From an uncultured Phycisphaerales bacterium (GTDB lineage: Bacteria; Planctomycetota; Phycisphaerae; SM23-33), in NCBI GenBank assembly GCA_965369385.1, contig CBDUQP010000001.1, forward strand, positions 4,628 to 68,627: DNA of 64,000 nucleotides, given 5' to 3'. How positions within the stretch are numbered: position 1 is the first letter of the stretch; each line of letters opens with the position of its first letter. A program made the position numbers and the translations under genes. Positions 4,731 through 64,000 of the stretch are shown in pieces. The notes under the pieces are model-generated. The model had not been told where the DNA came from. It did no database searches and saw only the letters and a program-made list of their open reading frames with translations.

Positions 4731-6031
4731 CCCAGCTGGCCCGGCATCGCCCTCGCCGACCAGCCGGGGCCATCTTGAGTTAACGGCACTCTAACGGCAG
4801 TTTAACGGCACACAATTCAAGCCAGCCTGATCGGCTTGAAACGAGACAGGCCGATACGGATTCCCAGAAAACCCGGCCGACCTCACAAGCATGGAGACCC
4901 GGATATTGCATAATTCGCATTTGTGCAAAAAGGTGCAAAATGTTACACGAATGGCATCTTGTGCACCGATTTGGAGCTTCGAGAATCGGCCGTTAATTGA
5001 CGATCTCGCCAGCCGTTAGCCATGGTTCAGAATCAGCATTGCGTCATTACGTGCACCATCCGCAAAAACGCAGTTATTTCGACGTTTTGTCGTCCTTCTT
5101 TCACTTTTTTCCGCTTCTTTTTTCGCAAAACCCCACAATCCCCCGCATCAAAACCCGCCCCACCAGTCAGTATGTAGATATATGACTGCGCGCCGTTGTA
5201 GGGGCAGACCTATATGTCCGCCCGATTCGCCGTTCAGCCCGGCCGCCACACACCTGCCGGGCATTCGAGAGCACGTCAACTCACCGATTGTCCGTAACCC
5301 CTTTTTCCACTTCAAGATTCTCTCGCAAACAGATTGACCTTTGGGCGATTTGGGCCAACAATCAGTATGTCGGTGGACAAAACTCGGCTTCATGCCGTGT
5401 GGTCCCGCTGGTTCGCCACGGGAGACCCTATATCCCCCGACGTCTTTTTGCGCTCACCGCACCTGACACCATGGGAAAAATCTATTAGGAGACTTGTGTT
5501 TTCCGAACAAAGGCCTTACTCTTTGCGTTCGAAAGGAAGACTGCGCCCGCCGGTGATTCGTCGCCATGCGGGAACACACTTGGACGCATCTGAGACCAAC
5601 GTCTTTGTCCCAGTCAATTCGTGGGTTCCACTGAGTTGAGCACAGTGGCGGCTTTGGCAACGGCGGGCACAATCGCCAGCGAGGCCGATGTACAGCAACT
5701 GGGGCCGGCACACGCATAATTGCGTGCAGTTGCCGGACGGAAACGTCACGCTTGGTCGTCCATCATGTTGCGGAATCTTCGGTTGCGGGTGACGTATTCG
5801 AAAAAAGATGAAACCACCGGGCCCTATTGCGGGTCTTGGTAGTAACGGCAGATCGGTTAGCGGTAATTGTACAGTTGTGACTTTCAAATAACGGCAGCTC
5901 AGATTTTTAGAAAGCGTTCAGACGCAACTGGGTTTCTCTGACGCGATGGATATCGTTCTTGCCGGCTTCATTTACCGCCCGCGGGCGGCGCTCCCGGATT
6001 GCCGGGGGTGGGGAATAAGGAACAGACTTTG

Positions 6032-38155: not shown

Positions 38156-38172
38156 GCTGAATGCACAGTTGA

Positions 38173-38580
38173 AGCGAGAATTGGGACTGTCCCGTTGTCG
38201 GGCCTGCCCGCCGTGGCGGGGACTGTCCCCAATGGCACTGCCATCTGTTTTGGTTGTTTTTGGTCGTCCGGGCCGAAGGTCCGATGGGCAGTAAGCCGGG
38301 GTGTGACCGACCAACGGGAGGGAACCCCCGGAATAGATCCCCCAAAACTTCAGAACCCCGATAGGGGTGGCCAGAGAAGCTTAACAGCGAGTTGGATGCC
38401 TGATAACTGGGCAACTCTTGTGCCAATTATTCCTGTCAATTCGCAAGTCAGCATCTCCCCCCCGGCCCTTCGGGACGGGGAGTATAGAGATCTGTATCCG
38501 GGGGCTGCACCGCGACTTACGTCGCGGCTAACCCCCGGCGTCGAAGATCCCGATACACATCGGGGCCCATCGGACCTTCG
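38173..38580 (+). repeat. Copy A of a modular hairpin-rich intergenic repeat family (about 410 nt, contains internal inverted modules)
   Basis: Shares with copy B the 5' module GGGACTGTCCCCAATGGCACTGCC, a G/T-rich tract GGTTGTTTTTGGTCG, and the 3' block from GGGCAACTCTTGTGCC to CCCATCGGACCTTCGGCCC (about 130 nt, near-identical). Also carries the reverse-complement module CGGGCCGAAGGTCCGATGGGCAG at about 38262. Confidence 0.8.
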
Positions 38581-38838
38581 GCCCTGACGACAGAAACTAC
38601 GGCAGCCACGCTCAACGAACGCCTTCAGGATTTCTGCCGGAAACCTAGCTAAACGCATTCGATCTTAATACGGCCTCTTTAGGCATGGCACTGGTTACAG
38701 GCCGGACACTCATCACGATTAGGGCTCCCTCACCCGCACACCGCCGGCGAGAGACTTTCTTTTATGGAAACCGCATGGTCGATGGGTTAATCTGAAGTCT
38801 TCTGAAAAGGGATCAGCCGCAGAAAGGAAGATGGCAAC

Positions 38839-40413: not shown

Positions 40414-40430
40414 TGCATCAAACGCAAAAA

Positions 40431-40859
40431 CGGGACTGGCTCCAATGGCACTGCCGTCTGGTTTGGTTGTTTAGTCGTTTGGTTGTTTGGTCGTTTGGTT
40501 TAACCCCAACGGGGTGGCAAGCAGTTAGCCGGGGTTGAGCGAAGCGAGCCCCCGGAATAGAGCTCAAAAAACATCAGAACCCCGAAGGGGCCTGCCCGCC
40601 GGATGAGGAGGGTGGCAAGAGAAGTGTTTGCGTCGCATTGAGGTTCGAATCGGGCAACTCTTGTGCCAATTATTCGTGTCAATTCGCAAGTCAGCATCTC
40701 CCCCCGGCCCTTCGGGACGGGGAGTATAGAGATCTGTATCCGGGGGCTGCACCGCGACTTACGTCGCGGCTGACCCCCGGCTAACTGCCCATCGGACCTT
40801 CGGCCCGAACAACACAAAACGGCAAGAACAGACGGCAATGCCATTGATAGCAGTCCCCG
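40431..40859 (+). repeat. Copy B of the repeat family, complete, with about 29-nt imperfect terminal inverted repeats (MITE-like)
   Basis: Left end GGGACTGGCTCCAATGGCACTGCCGTCTG. Right end CAGACGGCAATGCCATTGATAGCAGTCCCC, its imperfect reverse complement. Internal (GGTTTGGTTGTTT)n tract and its complement near the right end. The 3' block is about 97% identical to copy A. Confidence 0.8.
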
Positions 40860-40944
40860 TTTTGCCCAAAAGTTTGTCGAGGGCTATTGACGCATCGGTG
40901 GTGCATCTGTATAGTATTTCGCTCCGCCGATTGGCGGGGATTAT

Positions 40945-41018
40945 GGTGGCTATAGCTCAGTTGGTAGAGCACCGCGTTGTGGTCGCGGGGGTCGCGGGTT
41001 CAAGCCCCGTTAGCCACC
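40945..41018 (+). tRNA. tRNA-His (anticodon GUG)
   Basis: Cloverleaf read by eye. G-1 plus acceptor GUGGCUA/UAGCCAC, discriminator C. D-arm GCUC-AGUUGGUA-GAGC. Anticodon stem CCGCG/CGCGG with loop UUGUGGU. T-arm GCGGG-UUCAAGC-CCCGU. No encoded CCA. Confidence 0.85.
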
Positions 41019-41789: not shown

Positions 41790-42035
41790 ATTACTGGGCG
41801 ACACTTGAGGCAACTGTTCGTGTTAATCCGCAGGCACACATCTCCTCCTGCCCCTTCGGGGCGGGACTTTCTGGGGGCGTATTTGTCCGGGGGCTGCGCC
41901 GCGATAAACCCCGCGGCTTACCCCCGGCTAACTGCCCATCGGACCTTCGGCCCGAACGACAACAACCGGCAAACAAGAGACAACAACAACTGCGATGACA
42001 ACAACAACGAGGACACTGAATGCGATTGCCCTGTC
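41790..42035 (+). repeat. Copy C of the repeat family (3' half only, diverged)
   Basis: Contains the UUCG hairpin (CCUCCUGCCCCUUCGGGGCGGGA), the CCGGGGGCUGCGCCGCGAUAAACCCCGCGGCUUACCCCCGG hairpin, then CTAACTGCCCATCGGACCTTCGGCCCGAAC and an (ACAACAAC)n tract. Stem sequences differ from copies A and B but keep their pairing. Confidence 0.7.
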
Positions 42036-42037
42036 CC

Positions 42038-44269
42038 TTACACCTGCGAGTGGAAGGTCCTGGAAATTACTTCTTCCTGCTGCTCGCGGTTGAGCTTGTG
42101 GAAGTTCACCGCGTATCCGGAAACGCGAATCGTCAAATTAGGATACTTCTCCGGATTCGCCATCGCGTCGACCAGTAACTCGCGGTCGACAACGTTGATA
42201 TTCACGTGATGCCCGCCCTGGGCAAAGTATCCGTCAAGCACACCTACCAAATTTCCGCGCTGCTCGGGCAGTGCCTTGCCGAGCGTCGCCGGCGTAATAC
42301 TGAACGTACATGATATCCCGTCACGGCATGCATCGTAGGGTATCTTGGCGACCGAATTCAGCGACGCCAGCACACCGTGGCAGTCTCGCCCGTGCATGGG
42401 GTTGGCGCCGGGTGCAAAAGGCTGACCGTATTTCCTACCGTCCGGCGTTGAACCAGTCTTCTTTCCGTAAACCACGTTCGAAGTAATCGTAAGTATCGAA
42501 AGCGTGTGCTCGGCGTTTCGATAGGCGGGCGTCTTCTTTAACGATGCAAGGAAGTCTTCAACAAGAGTCGCAGCGATAAGGTCAACGTCGTCCTCATCGT
42601 TACCGAACGTCGGAAACTCGCCTGCGATTTCGAATTCCTTCACCAGTCCCGATTCGTCCTTCACGGGCATGACACTGGCATATTTGATCGCGCTGAACGA
42701 ATCGGCCACCACCGAAAGCCCCGCGATTCCAAACGCCATGAACCTGTCAACCTGCGTATCGTGCAGGCCCATCTCCAGCTTCTCGTAGGCGTAACGGTCG
42801 TGCATGAAGTGGATGATATTCATCGCGTTGACATACACCTTGCACAGCCAGTCGCGATAGAAATCAAACCGCCTCGACACTTCATCATAATCCAGCGGGC
42901 CATCGCCAATAGGCTCCATCTGGGGGCCGATTTGCTGACCAGTCAACTCGTCCCTACCGCCATTTATCGCCATCAGCAGTGTCTTGGGCAGATTACATCT
43001 CGCGCCGAAGAACTGCATCTGCTTACCGAGAGTCATCGCAGATACGCAGCACGCTATACCGTAATCGTCGCCATACACCGGCCTCATCAAATCGTCATTC
43101 TCGTACTGGATGGACGCGGTATCGATAGACACCTTCGCACAGTAACTCTTGAACGCATCGCTGAGGCGTTCGGACCAGAGCACGGTCAGATTCGGTTCCG
43201 GGTTGGGCCCGAGGTTATATAGCGTGTGAAGCATTCGGAAGGATGTCCTGGTAACGAGCGGCCGCGAGTCTTCGCCCATCCCGCCTACCGACTCGGTAAT
43301 CCACGTGGGGTCACCTGCGAAAAGTTCGTTATATTCCGGCGTGCGAAGCTGGCGAGCCATTCGCAGCTTCATCACGAAATCGTCGATGATTTCCTGCACG
43401 CCGGATTCATCAAGCGTGCCCTCAGCGAGATCTCGCTGAAAGAAAATATCCAGGAACGTGCTGACCCGCCCGAGCGACATCGCGGCCCCGTTCTGTTCCT
43501 TGATCGCACCGAGATAGGCAAAGTACACCCACTGCACAGCCTCGCGTGCATTGCGGGCAGGTGCGGAAATATCGATACCGTAAATCTCGGCCATCTGATT
43601 AAGCATTCGCAGGAAGTTAAGCTGCTTTGTGATCTCTTCCAGCAGGCGAATGTTCTCTTCGGACATATCCTGTAGGCCAAGTTCGGCGTGATCGTTCTCT
43701 TTGCACTCAATAATGCGATCTACGCCGTAGAGGGCAACTCGGCGGTAGTCACCGATAATTCGGCCTCGTCCGTAGGAATCGGGCAGGCCGGTTATCACGC
43801 CGGATTTGCGGGCCCGCCTTATCTCCTCGGTGTAAGCCCGGAAGACGCCGTCGTTGTGTGTGCTTCGATAGGCGAAGATGCCCTCGATCTTATCGTCAAC
43901 CTTGTAGCCGTATGCCTCGCACGCCCTGCGGGCCAGCCGCATCCCGCCAAATGGGTTGAGACTGCGTTTGAGGGGGCTATCGGTCTGGAGGCCGACAATT
44001 ATCTCGCGATCCTTGTCAAGATACCCCGGTTCGTAGGTGAGCAGTGACGATATGTGCTCGGTGTCTATAGACAGCACACCGCCACGCTCACGTTCGAGCT
44101 GCTCAAGGGCGGCGAGTTTGCCCATGAGCCCTCGCGTGCGGTCGGTGGGACCGGCGAGGAAAGACTCATCGCCATCGTAAGGTGTGTAGTTGTTCTGGAT
44201 GAAGTCGCGAACGTCAATCTGACGCTGCCACGTTCCATCGACAAAGTTTCGCCAGGCATCGTTTACCAT
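42038..44269 (-). CDS. pflB: Formate C-acetyltransferase (pyruvate formate-lyase)
   Basis: Glycyl-radical motif RVSGYAV near the C-terminus. Active-site region with adjacent cysteines (GIACCVSA). The N-terminus [42 protein letters not shown] aligns with E. coli PflB residues 1-50. Start moved from 44353 to ATG 44269. Confidence 0.9.
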
Positions 44270-44487
44270 TGCTGAATCTCCAAAATATGGGGAAATTGGA
44301 AAACTCACTGCAACAGCCGCCCGGAAATGAAAAACGCCCGGACATACCATCACATGCCCAGGCGGTCGGCAAAACTCTCTAATTACCTCGATCCCTTGTG
44401 GTTATGCCCACAATAAATCCGCCAGTCTCAAGGTAAGCTTTGTTCGTACTGTATTATAGGCACCCCCGCAGCAGCGTTCAAGACCCA

Positions 44488-49800: not shown

Positions 49801-50480
49801 GGTGTTTGTTTCTGTTGGTTTTATCTTGGTTTCTATGTGCGCCGTTGCCGAGTTTTTTGCTGTTGGCGTTTTCGGGCCGAAGGTCCGAGGGGATATTAGC
49901 CGGGGGTAAGGCTCGACGTAAGTCGTGCCGCAGCCCCCGGATATACTCTCTGTAATCCCCGCCCCGAAGGCGGCGGGAGGTATGCTCCTTTGCGAATTGC
50001 AGAACCGGGGACCGTCCCAATCCTGTCCGGCATGCGATTTGTACAAGGTTGCGGGTGGCGAGTGCGGGTGAGGATTGACCGGTGAGCGGATGGGCTCCGG
50101 CCCGAAGGGCCGGCAAGAACTTAGACGGAGGCATACACGTCACGACGAAGCCGAAGGGGAAGACGGAAGCCTCCGGACAAGGCGTGCAAGAATAGCCAAG
50201 CCCCAACGGGGCGATACAAGGGTAATCCGAAATGGCCGTGTTCTTCTGAGACCGTGAATTGCTGTCTGTCCCAGGGCCTACGCGTGCACGCTGCGGATTA
50301 CCAGACAAATACGTATCGCCCTTTCAGGACTCTGTTTCAACGTGGCCGCTGGATCGGAGGTTGTTTCAATATTGCCTCCGCCTAAGATCTGGCGAGGCCT
50401 TCGGCCTCTAAAAACGGATGCGGCTGCAATCCCCATGCCGGACAGGATTGGGACGGTCCCCAACGCCGGGACAGTCCCAG
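49801..50480 (-). repeat. Copy D of the repeat family (reverse orientation, composite: 3' block plus a TIR-bounded segment of about 400 nt)
   Basis: Region 49870-50010 is the reverse complement of the shared 3' block (..GGGCCGAAGGTCCGAGG..CCGGGGGTAAGGCTCGACGTAAGTCGTGCCGCAGCCCCCGG..CCCGCCCCGAAGGCGGCGGGAGG..TTGCGAATT). GGGGACCGTCCCAATCCTGTCCGGCATGCG at about 50006 is matched inverted by CGCATGCCGGACAGGATTGGGACGGTCCCC at about 50432. A G/T-rich tract lies at 49801-49835. Confidence 0.7.
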
Positions 50481-50504
50481 TTTTCGCTCAGGCATTAATC
50501 GCAG

Positions 50505-56614: not shown

Positions 56615-57008
56615 ATATCTTTCCTTCACCTCTTCAACAACGATTCGGCGATGCTGCAGGGCGTCACAAACTGCCCTCGCATCGTCCGGAATCACAAAGC
56701 AAGTCAGCCATTATCGCCAGAGCGAATCGAATTACCAGTATTGCGTATGCCCGCACACAGAGCAGGTGAGCCCCGATGTGCATCGGGATCTTCGACGCCG
56801 GAGGCGGGCAGGTGAAACAACAAGGGCGAACAATCACCTGCGAGACTGATTTCAAATAGGCTCGCTCACCTGCGGTCTCCTGGCCACATGTCCAGCGAAA
56901 GATGCGATGTAATTTCGCTCCTGATCAACTCGTTTTATTACGTTTTGAGCACAAAACGGGGGAAATAGCTGAATAATCGTAACTTCAGAAGAATATGCCA
57001 TATTTGGG

Positions 57009-57037
57009 TTGCCTCGTAGCCTTCACCCCTATATATT
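57009..57037 (+). promoter_or_regulatory. Putative sigma70-type promoter driving the riboswitch-nrdDG transcript
   Basis: TTGCCT -35 and TATATT -10 with a 17-nt spacer, about 30 nt upstream of the riboswitch P1. Confidence 0.45.
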
Positions 57038-57064
57038 GTATGTGTTGCTGGTGTCCTGAGTGAT

Positions 57065-57295
57065 CAGGATGGCAAGAGGGAACCCGGTGAGAGTCCGGGA
57101 CTGCCCCGCAGCGGTAATCGGGAACGAACCCCGCGTTCGAGCACTTTCCGGGATTTTTCGCCAGTTGTTCTGAGGCTTGCTGAATGTTCAGCAGTAGTCA
57201 GGCCCTTGGCGATCCGGATGGGAAGCGGCGGGAAGTAGACGCGACGATGATGTCGCACGCCCGAGAGTCCGAAGACCTGCCAGCGACCTGTGCAA
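57065..57295 (+). promoter_or_regulatory. Cobalamin (B12) riboswitch in the nrdD leader
   Basis: Core AGGGAACCCGGUGAGAGUCCGGGACUGCCCCGCAGCGGUAA matches the conserved cobalamin-riboswitch core (E. coli btuB: AGGGAAUCCGGUGCGAAUCCGGAGCUGACGCGCAGCGGUAA). Downstream GGGAAG...GAGAGUCCGAAGACCUGCCAGCG matches the B12 box (btuB: GCCCGAAGACCUGCCGGCC). P1 pairs UGGCA near 57070 with UGCCA near 57287. Confidence 0.8.
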
Positions 57296-57692
57296 ACGCA
57301 CGGTTATCGACCCGAGCCTCCGAGGGGAGACGGGTTGAAGCGAAAAGGCACTACGCAGTGGCGACGAGACGATAGGTACAAGAAAGTCTGGACCTGAAGT
57401 TGCAGTTAGACGACAGGTACACGGAAATTCTGATCTAAAACGTCCCAGGCCGCACCTGTATGGCTTTTCACTTCTACCGACCCCTTTGGCAGGGTTCGCA
57501 GGCAACCGTGATAGTTTTTTGATGGTTGTCCGCCGCTTGAGGGGCGGAGGTTGAATCAGCGTTCGGCAGCACTGGCGACGGATGCCGGCTGCGGGATGTA
57601 CCCTCATTTCGTTGTTTGAAATTGTTTCAGTGTCGCCGGTCAAATGTTTTTTCGTGTCTTCGCATTTGTGCGCAGCATGAGACGTACTCAAG

Positions 57693-60572: not shown

Positions 60573-61142
60573 ATGATCTTTTCCGACGGGCAAATCATAG
60601 AAGCTTTGAAGTCAGGGCGCATCACGATAGACCCCGTCCCCTCGGCCGACCAGTTCGCACCATCAGCAGTGGACCTGCACGTAGGGGCCGAGTTCAAGCG
60701 ATGGAAGACCCCGCCTGCGGGCGTAACCCAGCACCTGCGATTGTCGGAAGTGAACATCCCGGACTACGCGGATATGGTAGAGGATATTGATCGTAACGAA
60801 GACGGCTCGGTGCTGATCAGGCCGGGCGAATTCGTACTGTCCCAGACCATGGAACGAGTGCACGTACCGCACGACAGCCAACTGGCTGCCCGCGTGGAGG
60901 GCCGAAGCAGTTTCGCCAGACTTGGCTTGGTAGTACACATGACAGCCCCCACCATTCACGCCGGTTTCGAGGGTAACATCGTGCTTGAAATGATGAACTT
61001 CGGGCCGTTCCCACTGGCGATGGACCCCAACCACACACGCATCTGCCAAATCATCTTCGAAGAACTCGGCGCCCCACCCTCATGCGCCATCGACACCCCC
61101 TTCCAAAACCAGTCCACCGTCCTGGGCAAGAAAAGCGATTAA
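60573..61142 (+). CDS. dcd: dCTP deaminase (housekeeping, trimeric dUTPase-fold)
   Basis: Conserved VEGRSSFARLGLVVH and C-terminal NFGPFPLAMDPNHTRICQIIF. Start moved to ATG 60573, which has AAGGTGA RBS; the track start at 60420 overlaps nrdG. Confidence 0.9.
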   Translation: MIFSDGQIIEALKSGRITIDPVPSADQFAPSAVDLHVGAEFKRWKTPPAGVTQHLRLSEVNIPDYADMVEDIDRNEDGSVLIRPGEFVLSQTMERVHVPHDSQLAARVEGRSSFARLGLVVHMTAPTIHAGFEGNIVLEMMNFGPFPLAMDPNHTRICQIIFEELGAPPSCAIDTPFQNQSTVLGKKSD

Positions 61143-61484
61143 GCCCAATAGCCCGCAACACCAATAGCCCAACTCCCAATATCCGCCGGCCATCAAACAA
61201 GCGATCCAATCAAGTCATTTCACCCAAAGTTCATTTCGCCAAGCCACGCAAGAACGCCGCTCGTTTGAGTGGCAAGAATGGTCTGGCCGGGCGAACATTG
61301 AACCACCTGCGCAGGCGTGTTGAGCGGGCAGGTGCGAGCCTTGACAATATCAACGTTCGGCGCCAGCGAAAGCTGGGTATAGAGATATGCGGAGAGATCG
61401 CGCCGTAACTGCCTGTTGCAGATAACCGCAGGGATGATCCCCATGGGCAAAGGGCGAGATCTAGCCCCAGACAAGGTAAAAATG

Positions 61485-62228
61485 CTAAGCTTCTGGGATC
61501 CCGATTCGTGACAGGTATGCGGAAAATCGCTGGGATATCTTTTCTCGGTAGAAGTTCTCAAGATTTGTGCAGAACTTCTCGGGGCCGAGTTGGGATAGTG
61601 GCACGGTGAAGAAGTGCTTAAAATCGATCACGGCTCTGCTGAAGGTTATCTTGCTCGGCTGCGTGACATGTGTATTGTTGACGCAATGGTATCTGGGTCT
61701 CTGGTCGTTGGTGATGCTTTTTAAGACCCCAATGGGGATTGCCGTCATTTGCATGGCCAACGCCTCAAGGTGTTCTCCCGTTACCGTTTGAACCACGTCG
61801 AACAGTGGCGCAACCAGCGCTGACAAGAGTATCTTGTCATGTTTCTTCCCGCCTTTGCTCAGTTCGTCTCTTGCTTCGCTATTTCGCTCCAAGTCGCATG
61901 CTTGGGAGAGCACGATCACCCAGGGGTATGTTATCTCACTTAGTGAAACTGTGTTCCCCTGTCGGGACACGAGATAGGAACAGACATCCTTATATATTGC
62001 CCCTTGGCCAGCATCTCCCGTCGCTTCTGTCGCATCGAATAGTGATTCCGCAGCGTTCGTTTTGTCCTTCAGATCTGCGATGTATTTCTGGAAGCGCACT
62101 GTGTTGGAAGGGTAAACGTCTTCGCTGCGCAGATCGGTTGGCTCAGTAGGATATTCTGTCTTCTCTTGGTACTTGTCCTGTGTGCCGGTACTTGGAGGAT
62201 TCCCCGTATAGCTTCCATCATTCTGCAT
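61485..62228 (-). CDS. Hypothetical protein (247 aa) in the low-GC island; disordered N-terminal third
   Basis: ORF in a region of about 48% GC, against about 60% elsewhere. No recognisable motif. Overlaps the upstream ORF by 11 nt, suggesting a two-gene operon. Confidence 0.4.
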   Translation of the reverse strand: MQNDGSYTGNPPSTGTQDKYQEKTEYPTEPTDLRSEDVYPSNTVRFQKYIADLKDKTNAAESLFDATEATGDAGQGAIYKDVCSYLVSRQGNTVSLSEITYPWVIVLSQACDLERNSEARDELSKGGKKHDKILLSALVAPLFDVVQTVTGEHLEALAMQMTAIPIGVLKSITNDQRPRYHCVNNTHVTQPSKITFSRAVIDFKHFFTVPLSQLGPEKFCTNLENFYREKISQRFSAYLSRIGIPEA

Positions 62229-62985
62229 TCATAATCCCCCGCAGAGTGTCGGTGATCATTCCTTCAAACACTGATGTGGCTTTGTCATGGAACTTCTCCA
62301 GTGTTGACTCTATGTTCTCATATTCCAGAATCCCCAGTGAGAATACGTCAGTATCAATAATGTACTGCCGGGCCTTGATTGGTGCTGGGTGGTCGGGATT
62401 ATGAATGCCGTACTGGAGGACCACACGCATTGAGTCATACGTGTATTCCACGCGGTTAAACGCTCGTGATATCGCCTGCCGTTCTGCTGGTTTCTGTTTT
62501 CCTGAGGCGGTTACCAAGTATTCCTTAGAGATGTACTTGCCCCAGCTAAGAGGGGGAGTCTTGCCTCCTGCGTCGATGACGTCGATATACCTGATCCCCA
62601 ATCGTTTGAGCGTACAGTTGTCACGATATTCCCGCAAGACGTCCAAGACGTTCTCAAAGTCCGCTTTCAATGACTTAAAGGAATCATAGGAACTGTATTC
62701 TATGGAGAAGTGATCATTAGAGACCTTTATGATTCTCTTCTCCTCCATATCGGTAAACACCCATACATTAGCGGTGGTGACCTCGCCAGGGGTTTCAATC
62801 CCGTTTGCAGTGATCTTGAATCCACTAGCAATCATCTGCTCACGACTCGTGACCGGACCCTTCCTTCGCAGCTGTTTCGCCAATTCCTCAGGGCATTCTT
62901 CAGAAGACTTGTCTCCTATGGGAGACGGGTCAAGGAAGTCAGCGCGGATGATAATCTTGTCAAGAAAAGTTTTTTTGTATTCCAT
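62218..62985 (-). CDS. Hypothetical protein (255 aa) in the low-GC island
   Basis: Clean ORF with AGGAG-like sequence upstream. No catalytic motif recognisable by eye. Family unknown. Confidence 0.45.
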   Translation of the reverse strand: MEYKKTFLDKIIIRADFLDPSPIGDKSSEECPEELAKQLRRKGPVTSREQMIASGFKITANGIETPGEVTTANVWVFTDMEEKRIIKVSNDHFSIEYSSYDSFKSLKADFENVLDVLREYRDNCTLKRLGIRYIDVIDAGGKTPPLSWGKYISKEYLVTASGKQKPAERQAISRAFNRVEYTYDSMRVVLQYGIHNPDHPAPIKARQYIIDTDVFSLGILEYENIESTLEKFHDKATSVFEGMITDTLRGIMNAE

Positions 62986-63175
62986 GCTCCGCTCCTGTCG
63001 TCCGGGGGCATGTGGCTATTGCTTCTCGCCCCTTCCTGTTTCAATGTGTGGGAGTAGACTAACTCCTGTGGCCACGATATGCAACACGGGAACGTGTCCC
63101 CTTGTTCTCATACTCACATACTGGCCGCTGAGGACACATCTGATGCATGTGTCTTCCTTGATCTCGATTGTTTCT

Positions 63176-63250
63176 GTTCGGGCCAACGGTCTGGCAGGTG
63201 CTTAGCCGGAGTGTAAGCCGCATATCGCGGCGCAGCCCCCGGCACCCCAA
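63176..63250 (-). repeat. Copy E of the repeat family (short 3'-block fragment, reverse orientation) inside the low-GC island
   Basis: GTTCGGGCCAACGGTCTGGCAGGTGCTTAGCCGGAGTGTAAGCCGCATATCGCGGCGCAGCCCCCGG aligns with the reverse complement of copy B 40744-40810 (GTTCGGGCCGAAGGTCCGATGGGCAGTTAGCCGGGGGTCAGCCGCGACGTAAGTCGCGGTGCAGCCCCCGG). Confidence 0.6.
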
Positions 63251-63479
63251 ACCAGCCCGCCGCGACGGATCAGGTGAGAAGATGATCGGCCATCATCCGT
63301 GGCACAGCTTGACCACTGCTGCCACAGACTATGCGGGTGGCAATCGAGTTACCATCCCAAGTAGACAGCAATATGCCAATAGCTGCAGCAGTTATGTGTC
63401 ATAGAATCCAACAGGGTCTTTCACTAGCATCATCGTCCCACTCTTCTCTTTGGAGTTACGGGAACGTCGCGTCGCGATA

Positions 63480-64000
63480 CTAGTGCCTGCCAAAGCTTGG
63501 AAATTCTGGGCGAACTGCACCCATGTAGCTGCCCTGAAGTTTCTCAACAGGCTCTTTGTCATGCCCGTCACATCGCATGAAGACCAACTGGCCGATACGC
63601 TCCCTCGGTTTCAATGCGATCGCAGTGTTTGATATGTTGGCAATCTCAAGCGTCAGACAGCCACGGTAATTTGGGTGGACCCAAGGCGCAGTGGCTATGA
63701 CTATAAAGGTTCTTGCCCAAGACGAGCGAGTCAGTATTTGACCGCACAGATCAGCGGGAATCTTGATGAATTCCAGAGTCATGCCAAGGATCGCGTGGTG
63801 CGCAGGTATAATTACACTCTCATCATCGGGAACGTACAGCTCCTGACTCATCTCCTCAGGCGGAGTCAAGCCTGCTTCAAAACATGCGATTCGTCCTACA
63901 GTTGGCATGACGAAGTAGTGACCAAGTCTTATGTCTATGCTGTCCACGTCCCCGTTGTCCTCAGAGGCAAAAGACTCGAGGTCAAATGGGCAGACATGGA
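63480..64000 (-). CDS. Second, divergent dCTP deaminase/dUTPase-fold protein (partial; N-terminus beyond the window end)
   Basis: ILTRSSWARTFIVIATAPWVHPNYRGCLTLEIANISNTAIALKPRERIGQLVFMR aligns with the Dcd motif GRSSLARLGL...GWSGCIVLEF...LALRPGMLIGALSF. The frame stays open upstream of the track start (a GTG) to the window edge (...HVCPFDLESFASEDNGDVDSIDIRLGHYF is similar to Dcd ...INGATVDVRLGNKFRTF). Confidence 0.65.
   Translation of the reverse strand, partial: HVCPFDLESFASEDNGDVDSIDIRLGHYFVMPTVGRIACFEAGLTPPEEMSQELYVPDDESVIIPAHHAILGMTLEFIKIPADLCGQILTRSSWARTFIVIATAPWVHPNYRGCLTLEIANISNTAIALKPRERIGQLVFMRCDGHDKEPVEKLQGSYMGAVRPEFPSFGRH

Follow-up and report, generated by a model that had tools for sequence, protein, structure and literature searches.

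Two candidate phage-conflict cassettes, one with a predicted MazF/CcdB-fold protein and one with a Dcd-fold protein, beside dcd-nrdDG in a Phycisphaerales bacterium

Several described systems bear on the two genetic elements reported here. MazEF, Kis-Kid and CcdAB are type II toxin–antitoxin systems; CptIN, ToxIN and AbiQ are type III or abortive infection (Abi) endoribonucleases neutralized by a tandem-repeat RNA encoded upstream; and CapRel-SJ46 is a fused toxin–antitoxin protein. On the nucleotide side, the comparison is with the housekeeping deoxycytidine triphosphate (dCTP) deaminase Dcd (TIGR02274) and with the defensive dCTP deaminase, in which a zinc-dependent cytosine deaminase domain follows an N-terminal kinase domain (Tal et al., bioRxiv 10.1101/2021.04.26.441389). 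In addition, dUTPase-type domains have been predicted as defense domains but not validated (PMC13092281). We set against these systems a low-GC region at the end of a 64,000-nucleotide (nt) stretch of contig CBDUQP010000001.1 from an uncultured Phycisphaerales bacterium; this whole stretch is called the window below. The region contains two overlapping open reading frames (ORFs) encoding proteins of 255 and 247 amino acids (aa), p255 and p247, which we call module A, and a gene for a divergent Dcd-like protein, Dcd2, which we assign to a module B (Table 1). Our results indicate that the region probably consists of two independent, horizontally acquired accessory cassettes beside dcd-nrdDG, each of them a candidate phage-conflict system.

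Judged by its sequence, p255 is clearly a member of the TIGR04255 family. It matches the NCBIfam profile across positions 2–251 of 252 with 110.8 bits (E = 9.7e-32; curated cutoff, 30 bits); it had no match in Pfam or PADLOC, and a fold search against BFVD returned only generic TBP-like matches. The second protein, p247, had no match in Pfam (E ≤ 0.1), NCBIfam or PADLOC. A database search retrieved 107 homologs, most of them about 185 aa long, and the invariant residues of the family are Q109, C111, D112, G151, R179, D202-F-K-H205, E229 and R234. The core of p247 is predicted to adopt the MazF/CcdB toxin fold, an SH3-like barrel, which would place it in that superfamily. Searches of PDB sequences with profiles of both module A proteins gave nothing useful. 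The original prediction, made from the DNA sequence of the window, had described the two ORFs as having no assignable function; this no longer holds, since one belongs to the TIGR04255 family and the other has a MazF/CcdB-fold model.

The two genes have relatives that keep the same arrangement across a wide range of organisms. Scanning one genome per species gave 244 relatives of the p247 family, which span many bacterial phyla as well as methanogenic and anaerobic methanotrophic (ANME) archaea; 80 of these loci (L001–L080) were fetched, together with viral and other loci. Of the 86 informative loci, 84 have a same-strand TIGR04255 gene as the immediate upstream neighbor, and no other flanking gene is conserved around them. 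The two exceptions are L047:1049–1606, where the MazF-fold gene is an orphan and its upstream side is noncoding for about 660 nt, and L088:7558–8630, a copy on a viral contig behind a TIGR04255 fragment truncated to 137 aa. Distances within the two protein families co-vary strongly (Mantel r = 0.78, a value reached in 0 of 2000 permutations), and therefore the TIGR04255 and MazF-fold genes travel as a unit. In the window, both minus-strand ORFs and their 11-nt overlap are present just as they had been described, and the overlap is consistent with translational coupling.

Most loci contain a third gene. Between the TIGR04255 stop codon and the region aligned with the conserved core of the MazF-fold protein there are, in most cases, 145–360 nt, and this stretch encodes a protein of 55–70 aa whose motifs are FSxEY..T at the N-terminal end and YGxxKPRRxxIRAKI at the C-terminal end. 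The C-terminal motif is found in the gap of 73 of 85 loci, and most of the others have a divergent small ORF. Gene callers annotate the small gene, and so does the Prokaryotic Genome Annotation Pipeline (PGAP): on a plasmid of Methylocystis iwaonis, its three module A coding sequences overlap by 8 nt each and have a recombinase and an "abortive infection family protein" as neighbors. Each small protein has two parts; mean net charge is −4.4 ahead of the motif and +4.0 over the motif itself. The usual cassette order, as read from these sequences, is thus a TIGR04255 protein, followed by a small bipartite protein whose N-terminal part is acidic and whose C-terminal strand is basic, followed by a MazF/CcdB-fold protein.

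The window copy of module A is a minority, two-gene form of this widespread three-gene cassette. It has no separate small gene, and its last protein instead has about 70 additional residues that form an acidic N-terminal extension (net charge −7, isoelectric point (pI) 4.3) ahead of a basic core (pI 8.4). In the model, the extension is mostly disordered, with a single confident strand at residues 45–52. Besides the window, the extended form was found only in a Verrucomicrobiota metagenome-assembled genome (L001), an IMG/VR contig (L082) and P0002–P0006. The copy in L001 (7310–9159) is the closest relative of window module A, with 46% and 49% identity. It lies directly downstream of a C5 cytosine methyltransferase gene, and a 287-aa ORF after the methyltransferase gene may encode the restriction partner of that enzyme. 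Two further p247 homologs, P0089 and P0096, have a different and longer N-terminal extension of about 90 aa (MIKVE.YLF..EN....D.NKLRRFLKD...); because it is unrelated to that of the window protein, the N-terminus of the family has been elaborated more than once.

Module A differs from the described systems in several respects. Relative to MazEF, Kis-Kid and CcdAB, its core is longer (about 175 aa versus about 110 aa) and has no detectable sequence homology, and the catalytic Arg/Thr pair does not look conserved, whereas the set Q-x-C-D, D-F-K-H, E and R is invariant. Nor do those systems have a counterpart of the obligatory, folded 255-aa TIGR04255 partner; no DNA-binding antitoxin domain was detected in module A. 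In CptIN, ToxIN and AbiQ the neutralizing agent is an RNA, whereas the partners in module A are proteins. There is no room for an RNA antitoxin in module A because its genes overlap, and an Rfam scan gave no match. The window form has a parallel in CapRel-SJ46, in that p247 includes, within the putative effector polypeptide, a segment at the position of the separate small protein. However, the folds of the two are unrelated, and both the homology of the extension to the small protein and its inhibitory role are putative. We also considered "GajC", the MazF-like protein of type II Gabija, which is unrelated to module A in context.

We infer that module A is a toxin–antitoxin or Abi-type module, because it has a patchy distribution across phyla, a foreign composition and tightly coupled genes, and because the MazF-fold gene never occurs without TIGR04255 save in the one orphan. 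Its genomic neighborhoods contain genes of several relevant kinds: the 141 immediate neighbors include 5 resolvases and 4 tyrosine integrases, and also C5 and N6 methyltransferases, Type ISP and ResIII restriction components, NgoMIV endonuclease and RhuM. The module occurs in eight IMG/VR contigs and one plasmid; among INPHARED phages there was no match for p247. Beyond its gene order, conservation, co-divergence, predicted folds and foreign composition, module A is characterized by the absence of a match to a catalogued family. Screening the window proteins against PADLOC-DB v2.0, a check proposed for p247 and p255 with the original prediction, produced no significant match, and the result was the same for three full three-gene homolog sets.

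In a model based on this interpretation, the MazF/CcdB-fold protein would be an effector that arrests growth, with the Q-x-C-D ... D-F-K-H ... E ... R set that is invariant in its family. Masking of the effector would fall to the small acidic protein in trans, or to the extension of the window protein in cis, in the manner of the acidic antitoxin tails of MazE-MazF. The TIGR04255 protein would be the obligatory partner, whether as neutralizer, sensor or regulator, and the whole would form a toxin–antitoxin or abortive-infection type element.

Several observations weigh against this model. Toxicity, neutralization and phage defense are all putative; what is shown is the operon layout and the strict co-occurrence. 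The assignment of p247 to the MazF/CcdB fold derives entirely from a predicted model: p247 had no Pfam match (E ≤ 0.1), and hhalign gave a probability of 0.1% when the family alignment (A4) was compared with a small alignment of five MazF/Kid/ChpBK sequences. When the motifs were aligned by eye (FPxVIVLTQDCDL with RPVLVIQND, and VAPLY with vvPlTs), the positions corresponding to the MazF catalytic Arg and Thr were F/Y and Y/F in the p247 family, and the canonical catalytic positions do not look conserved in these sequences. Since MazF sequence homology is undetectable and, by eye, aromatic residues stand at the catalytic-equivalent positions, the family would, if the model is right, be a strongly diverged offshoot of the CcdB/MazF fold whose conserved polar residues are its own. 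The flanks of module A are variable and include many housekeeping genes as well, in a tally that has no control for defense-island enrichment. As for the extension, hhalign pairs the expected segments, YxSxxVxYxKYxAxL of the extension with YGxxKPxRxxIRAKI of the small protein, at a nonsignificant E value of 0.37, and homology was likewise not significant by a full-length hidden Markov model (HMM) or by a motif HMM with shuffled control; because of this, the idea of a fusion is positional only. Finally, a solo TIGR04255-like gene, P0169, lies in a conserved housekeeping-like context (RecG, peptidases M48 and M17, RNase E/G; 146 blocks of the collection). Its divergent product is 238 aa long (L090, ERZ17812451, gene 5001–5717), and neither a small gene nor a MazF-fold gene accompanies it.

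These points would suit an alternative in which module A is no toxin and p247 is a harmless nucleic-acid- or protein-binding barrel that forms a regulatory or housekeeping-accessory pair with the TIGR04255 protein. Such a role would agree with the lack of MazF sequence similarity and the apparent loss of the canonical catalytic positions, and with the ability of TIGR04255-like genes to stand alone in stable contexts; the Cys, His, Lys and Asp residues that are invariant in this family might point to another kind of enzyme. We consider this alternative fairly unlikely, and we retain the toxin–antitoxin or Abi interpretation of module A.

Module B is represented in the window by Dcd2, which had been described as a divergent Dcd-like gene running off the window. 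We agree, because no stop codon interrupts the frame between 63480 and 63998, at the window end, and because the Pfam DCD match (E = 5e-24) begins only at profile position 30; by comparison with P0177, the 189-aa closest relative of Dcd2 (66% identity), the gene lacks about 18 codons here. The sequence TRSSWARTF does stand in Dcd2 where the native Dcd has GRSSFARLGL. The partial protein scores 104.3 bits against TIGR02274, above the equivalog cutoff of 92.8 bits, and its catalytic residues S92, S93, R96 and E118 align with solved Dcd structures and are invariant in its clade. By this score and the Ser/Arg/Glu residues, its sequence qualifies as that of a dCTP deaminase equivalog. Identity is 31% to the native Dcd and 28–35% to phage Dcd proteins, the only INPHARED matches. 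An exhaustive HMMER search revealed a distinct Dcd2 clade, with 22 relatives at E ≤ 1e-30 and the signature T[KR]SSWARxF...TAPW[IV]HPxYRGCLTLEIAN.

Like module A, this clade has conserved partners. We fetched 80 loci (L096–L175) of 499 relatives from Joint Genome Institute (JGI) metagenomes, mostly of soil, peat and sediment. Directly upstream of the Dcd gene and on the same strand, 58 of the 60 loci with enough DNA encode an HExxH protein of about 465 aa (c0; HEMGHF, with invariant H198, E199 and H202), and c0 is itself preceded by a gene for a helical protein of about 150 aa (c1) in 42 of 42 loci. In 23 loci the cassette is accompanied by a divergent gene for an Xre-type helix-turn-helix (HTH) protein. 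Many Dcd2 matches are C-terminal domains of 620–800-aa proteins, whose N-terminal parts had no Pfam or PADLOC match; these proteins are fusions of c0 to Dcd (E = 9e-41 and 2e-5). PADLOC-DB v2.0 contained no match for Dcd2 relatives or for the c0–Dcd fusions, and PDB sequence searches with c0 and c1 profiles gave nothing useful. The contig that encodes P0177 (L176) carries, in this order, genes for a GpA-type terminase, a 165-aa protein, a 461-aa HExxH protein (HMM E = 1e-71), Dcd, a 64-aa protein and Phage_portal_2. Because the GC content of this cassette is below that of its surroundings, it looks like a moron in a lambda-like packaging module.

Taken with these loci, Dcd2 in the window would be the last gene of a second cassette, with its c1 and c0 partners just outside the window. 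Two points tell against this as well: the partner genes are not in the window, which ends at position 64000 before the upstream side of Dcd2, and no relative of Dcd2 turned up when IMG/VR was scanned by pattern. Functionally, module B may be a regulated dCTP-deaminating or nucleotide-pool module for phage–host conflict. As with the defensive dCTP deaminase of Tal et al., the predicted dCTP deamination would deplete the dCTP of a phage; unlike that enzyme, Dcd2 has only the Dcd/dUTPase fold, with Ser/Arg/Glu chemistry and, in its relatives, an HExxH partner. Module B falls outside the family of Tal et al. because that family comprises zinc-dependent deaminases with a kinase domain, and a similar action is possible. 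The earlier suggestion of a phage-derived or defensive deoxynucleoside triphosphate (dNTP)-pool module is therefore supported in one part, in that the closest relative of Dcd2 lies in a prophage, but not in another, in that the fold differs from that of the known defensive dCTP deaminase and PADLOC matches no gene.

Dcd2 might instead be an ordinary chromosomal paralog, for example a bifunctional dCTP deaminase-dUTPase that supplies deoxyuridine monophosphate (dUMP) anaerobically near nrdDG. It shares with housekeeping Dcd a score above the TIGR02274 cutoff and the catalytic residues, and it lies near dcd-nrdDG. However, it differs from housekeeping Dcd in its clade, in its cassette and in the HExxH fusions: its identity to the native Dcd is low, its GC content at third codon positions (GC3) is 0.55 versus 0.72 for native dcd, and the clade resides in an HExxH cassette that is sometimes fused, has variable flanks and in one case sits in a prophage. 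We regard the paralog explanation as very improbable. The view that Dcd2 is not a housekeeping paralog is in line with the original prediction, and it agrees with a clade found in a conserved accessory cassette and a closest relative inside the packaging module of a lambda-like prophage.

A further question is whether modules A and B belong together. The original prediction placed them in one island, as a joint dNTP-pool defense module or a single prophage remnant, and some features would fit: the three genes share a strand and a low GC3 of 0.55–0.59, and the nearest relatives of both modules are in viral or prophage settings (the IMG/VR contig L082 for module A; between the terminase and portal genes of L176 for Dcd2). 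Against this, L001–L080 yielded no Dcd homolog, and the 80 loci of the Dcd2 clade yielded no gene of module A. As neither occurs in the loci of the other and each has its own conserved partners, the modules are best seen as independent neighbors. The two low-GC blocks are, moreover, parted by a 494-nt spacer of host-like GC that contains a host repeat, and there is no integrase, att repeat, tRNA gene or phage structural gene within 61–64 kb, the visible part of a region whose right-hand border is outside the window; the only tRNA gene of the window is at 40.9 kb. These findings refute a single functional dNTP-pool module that includes both ORFs and leave the one-island explanation improbable, while the idea of a small accretion of conflict-type genes is kept alive. 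We therefore continue to treat modules A and B as separate acquisitions.

The composition of the region is in line with a foreign origin, as had been proposed. Mean GC is 55.8% for the window and 57.9% for native dcd, compared with 49.0% for the ORF pair (p255, 47.5%; p247, 50.4%) and 51.4% for Dcd2. No other 1.5-kb stretch has a GC content as low as that of the pair (z = −3.9; none among about 1190 windows), and GC3 is 0.55–0.59 in p255, p247 and Dcd2 versus 0.67–0.72 in nrdD, nrdG and native dcd; for both reasons we consider the drop in GC to be real. The figures first given for it, a fall from about 60% to about 48%, apply only locally, from dcd to p255, and the dip is discontinuous, since the spacers at 61143–61484 and 62986–63479 are both at the host level of 55%.

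Other features of the region are few. No spacer ORF had a Pfam match, the spacer between the modules had no Rfam signal, and promoter, terminator and Rfam scans of 60.9–64 kb found nothing above chance. The repeat fragment noted earlier as "copy E" is there: it is a degenerate copy of an interspersed host repeat present at five other sites in the window. The family (38170–38620, 40430–40860, 41795–41975, 49870–50490, 56767–56804 and 63170–63250) is intergenic and occurs in both orientations; its members are about 80–400 nt long and partly palindromic, with the core GTTCGGGCCGAAGGTCCGATGGGCAGTTAGCCGGGGG...CGCGGCGCAGCCCCCGG, in the manner of repetitive extragenic palindromic (REP) or miniature inverted-repeat transposable (MITE) elements. 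Several copies flank the tRNA-His gene at 40946. Farther from the modules, a cobalamin riboswitch (95.9 bits; 57032–57298, plus strand) lies directly 5′ of nrdD-nrdG and suggests B12-dependent repression of the anaerobic ribonucleotide reductase, and a ZMP/ZTP riboswitch (62.8 bits; 44349–44439, minus strand) lies 5′ of a 771-aa ORF at 42038–44353.

Table 1. Features at the right-hand end of the window (window coordinates)
Feature	Position	Strand	Description
Native housekeeping dCTP deaminase dcd	60573..61142	+	TIGR02274, 132.7 bits; GC3 0.72, like nrdD/nrdG; context only, outside both modules
Left border spacer	61143..61484		Between convergent native dcd and module A; GC 55.3%, host-like; no recognizable gene
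Module A gene 2, p247	61485..62228	-	247 aa; acidic N-terminal extension plus MazF/CcdB-fold core (modeled); putative effector
p247 N-terminal extension	62013..62228	-	About 72 codons; position of the separate 55–70-aa gene in most relatives
11-nt overlap	62218..62228	-	Gene 1 stop / gene 2 start
Module A gene 1, p255	62218..62985	-	255 aa; TIGR04255 family; TBP-like duplicated alpha/beta saddle fold (predicted)
Spacer between modules A and B	62986..63479		494 nt; GC 55.5% (host-like); degenerate host interspersed repeat at about 63170–63250
Module B last gene, Dcd2	63480..64000	-	Dcd/dUTPase-fold, dCTP-deaminase-like, non-housekeeping clade; 5′ end beyond window

In the literature that we searched on TIGR04255, IPR026349 and Dcd with HExxH or defense, neither cassette is described, and the same is true of PADLOC v2 and Pfam. 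What is new here is best classed as a putative toxin–antitoxin or Abi-like module built on a predicted CcdB/MazF-fold effector and a candidate nucleotide-pool cassette built on the Dcd fold. A more specific proposal can be made, which we offer tentatively and consider rather doubtful as a whole. In it, module A would be an undescribed tripartite immunity or toxin–antitoxin system of bacteria and archaea, in which a MazF/CcdB-fold effector with a new, Cys/His/Lys-based active site is kept inactive by a small acidic protein docking via a basic beta-strand, with the TBP-like TIGR04255 protein as sensor or neutralizer and the window copy as a cis-fused variant; independently, module B would be an HExxH-controlled, Dcd-fold nucleotide-depletion system of prophages.

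If module A is a toxin or defense system, this would provide a function for the sporadically distributed TIGR04255 family. The CcdB/MazF superfamily would gain a partner architecture consisting of a large folded partner and a small bipartite peptide, with naturally fused variants, and masking of the effector could readily be studied by comparing the fused forms with the unfused ones. Module B, in turn, would be a Dcd/dUTPase-fold counterpart of the zinc-deaminase defense that acts by dCTP depletion. Both cassettes are short, self-contained and easily cloned.

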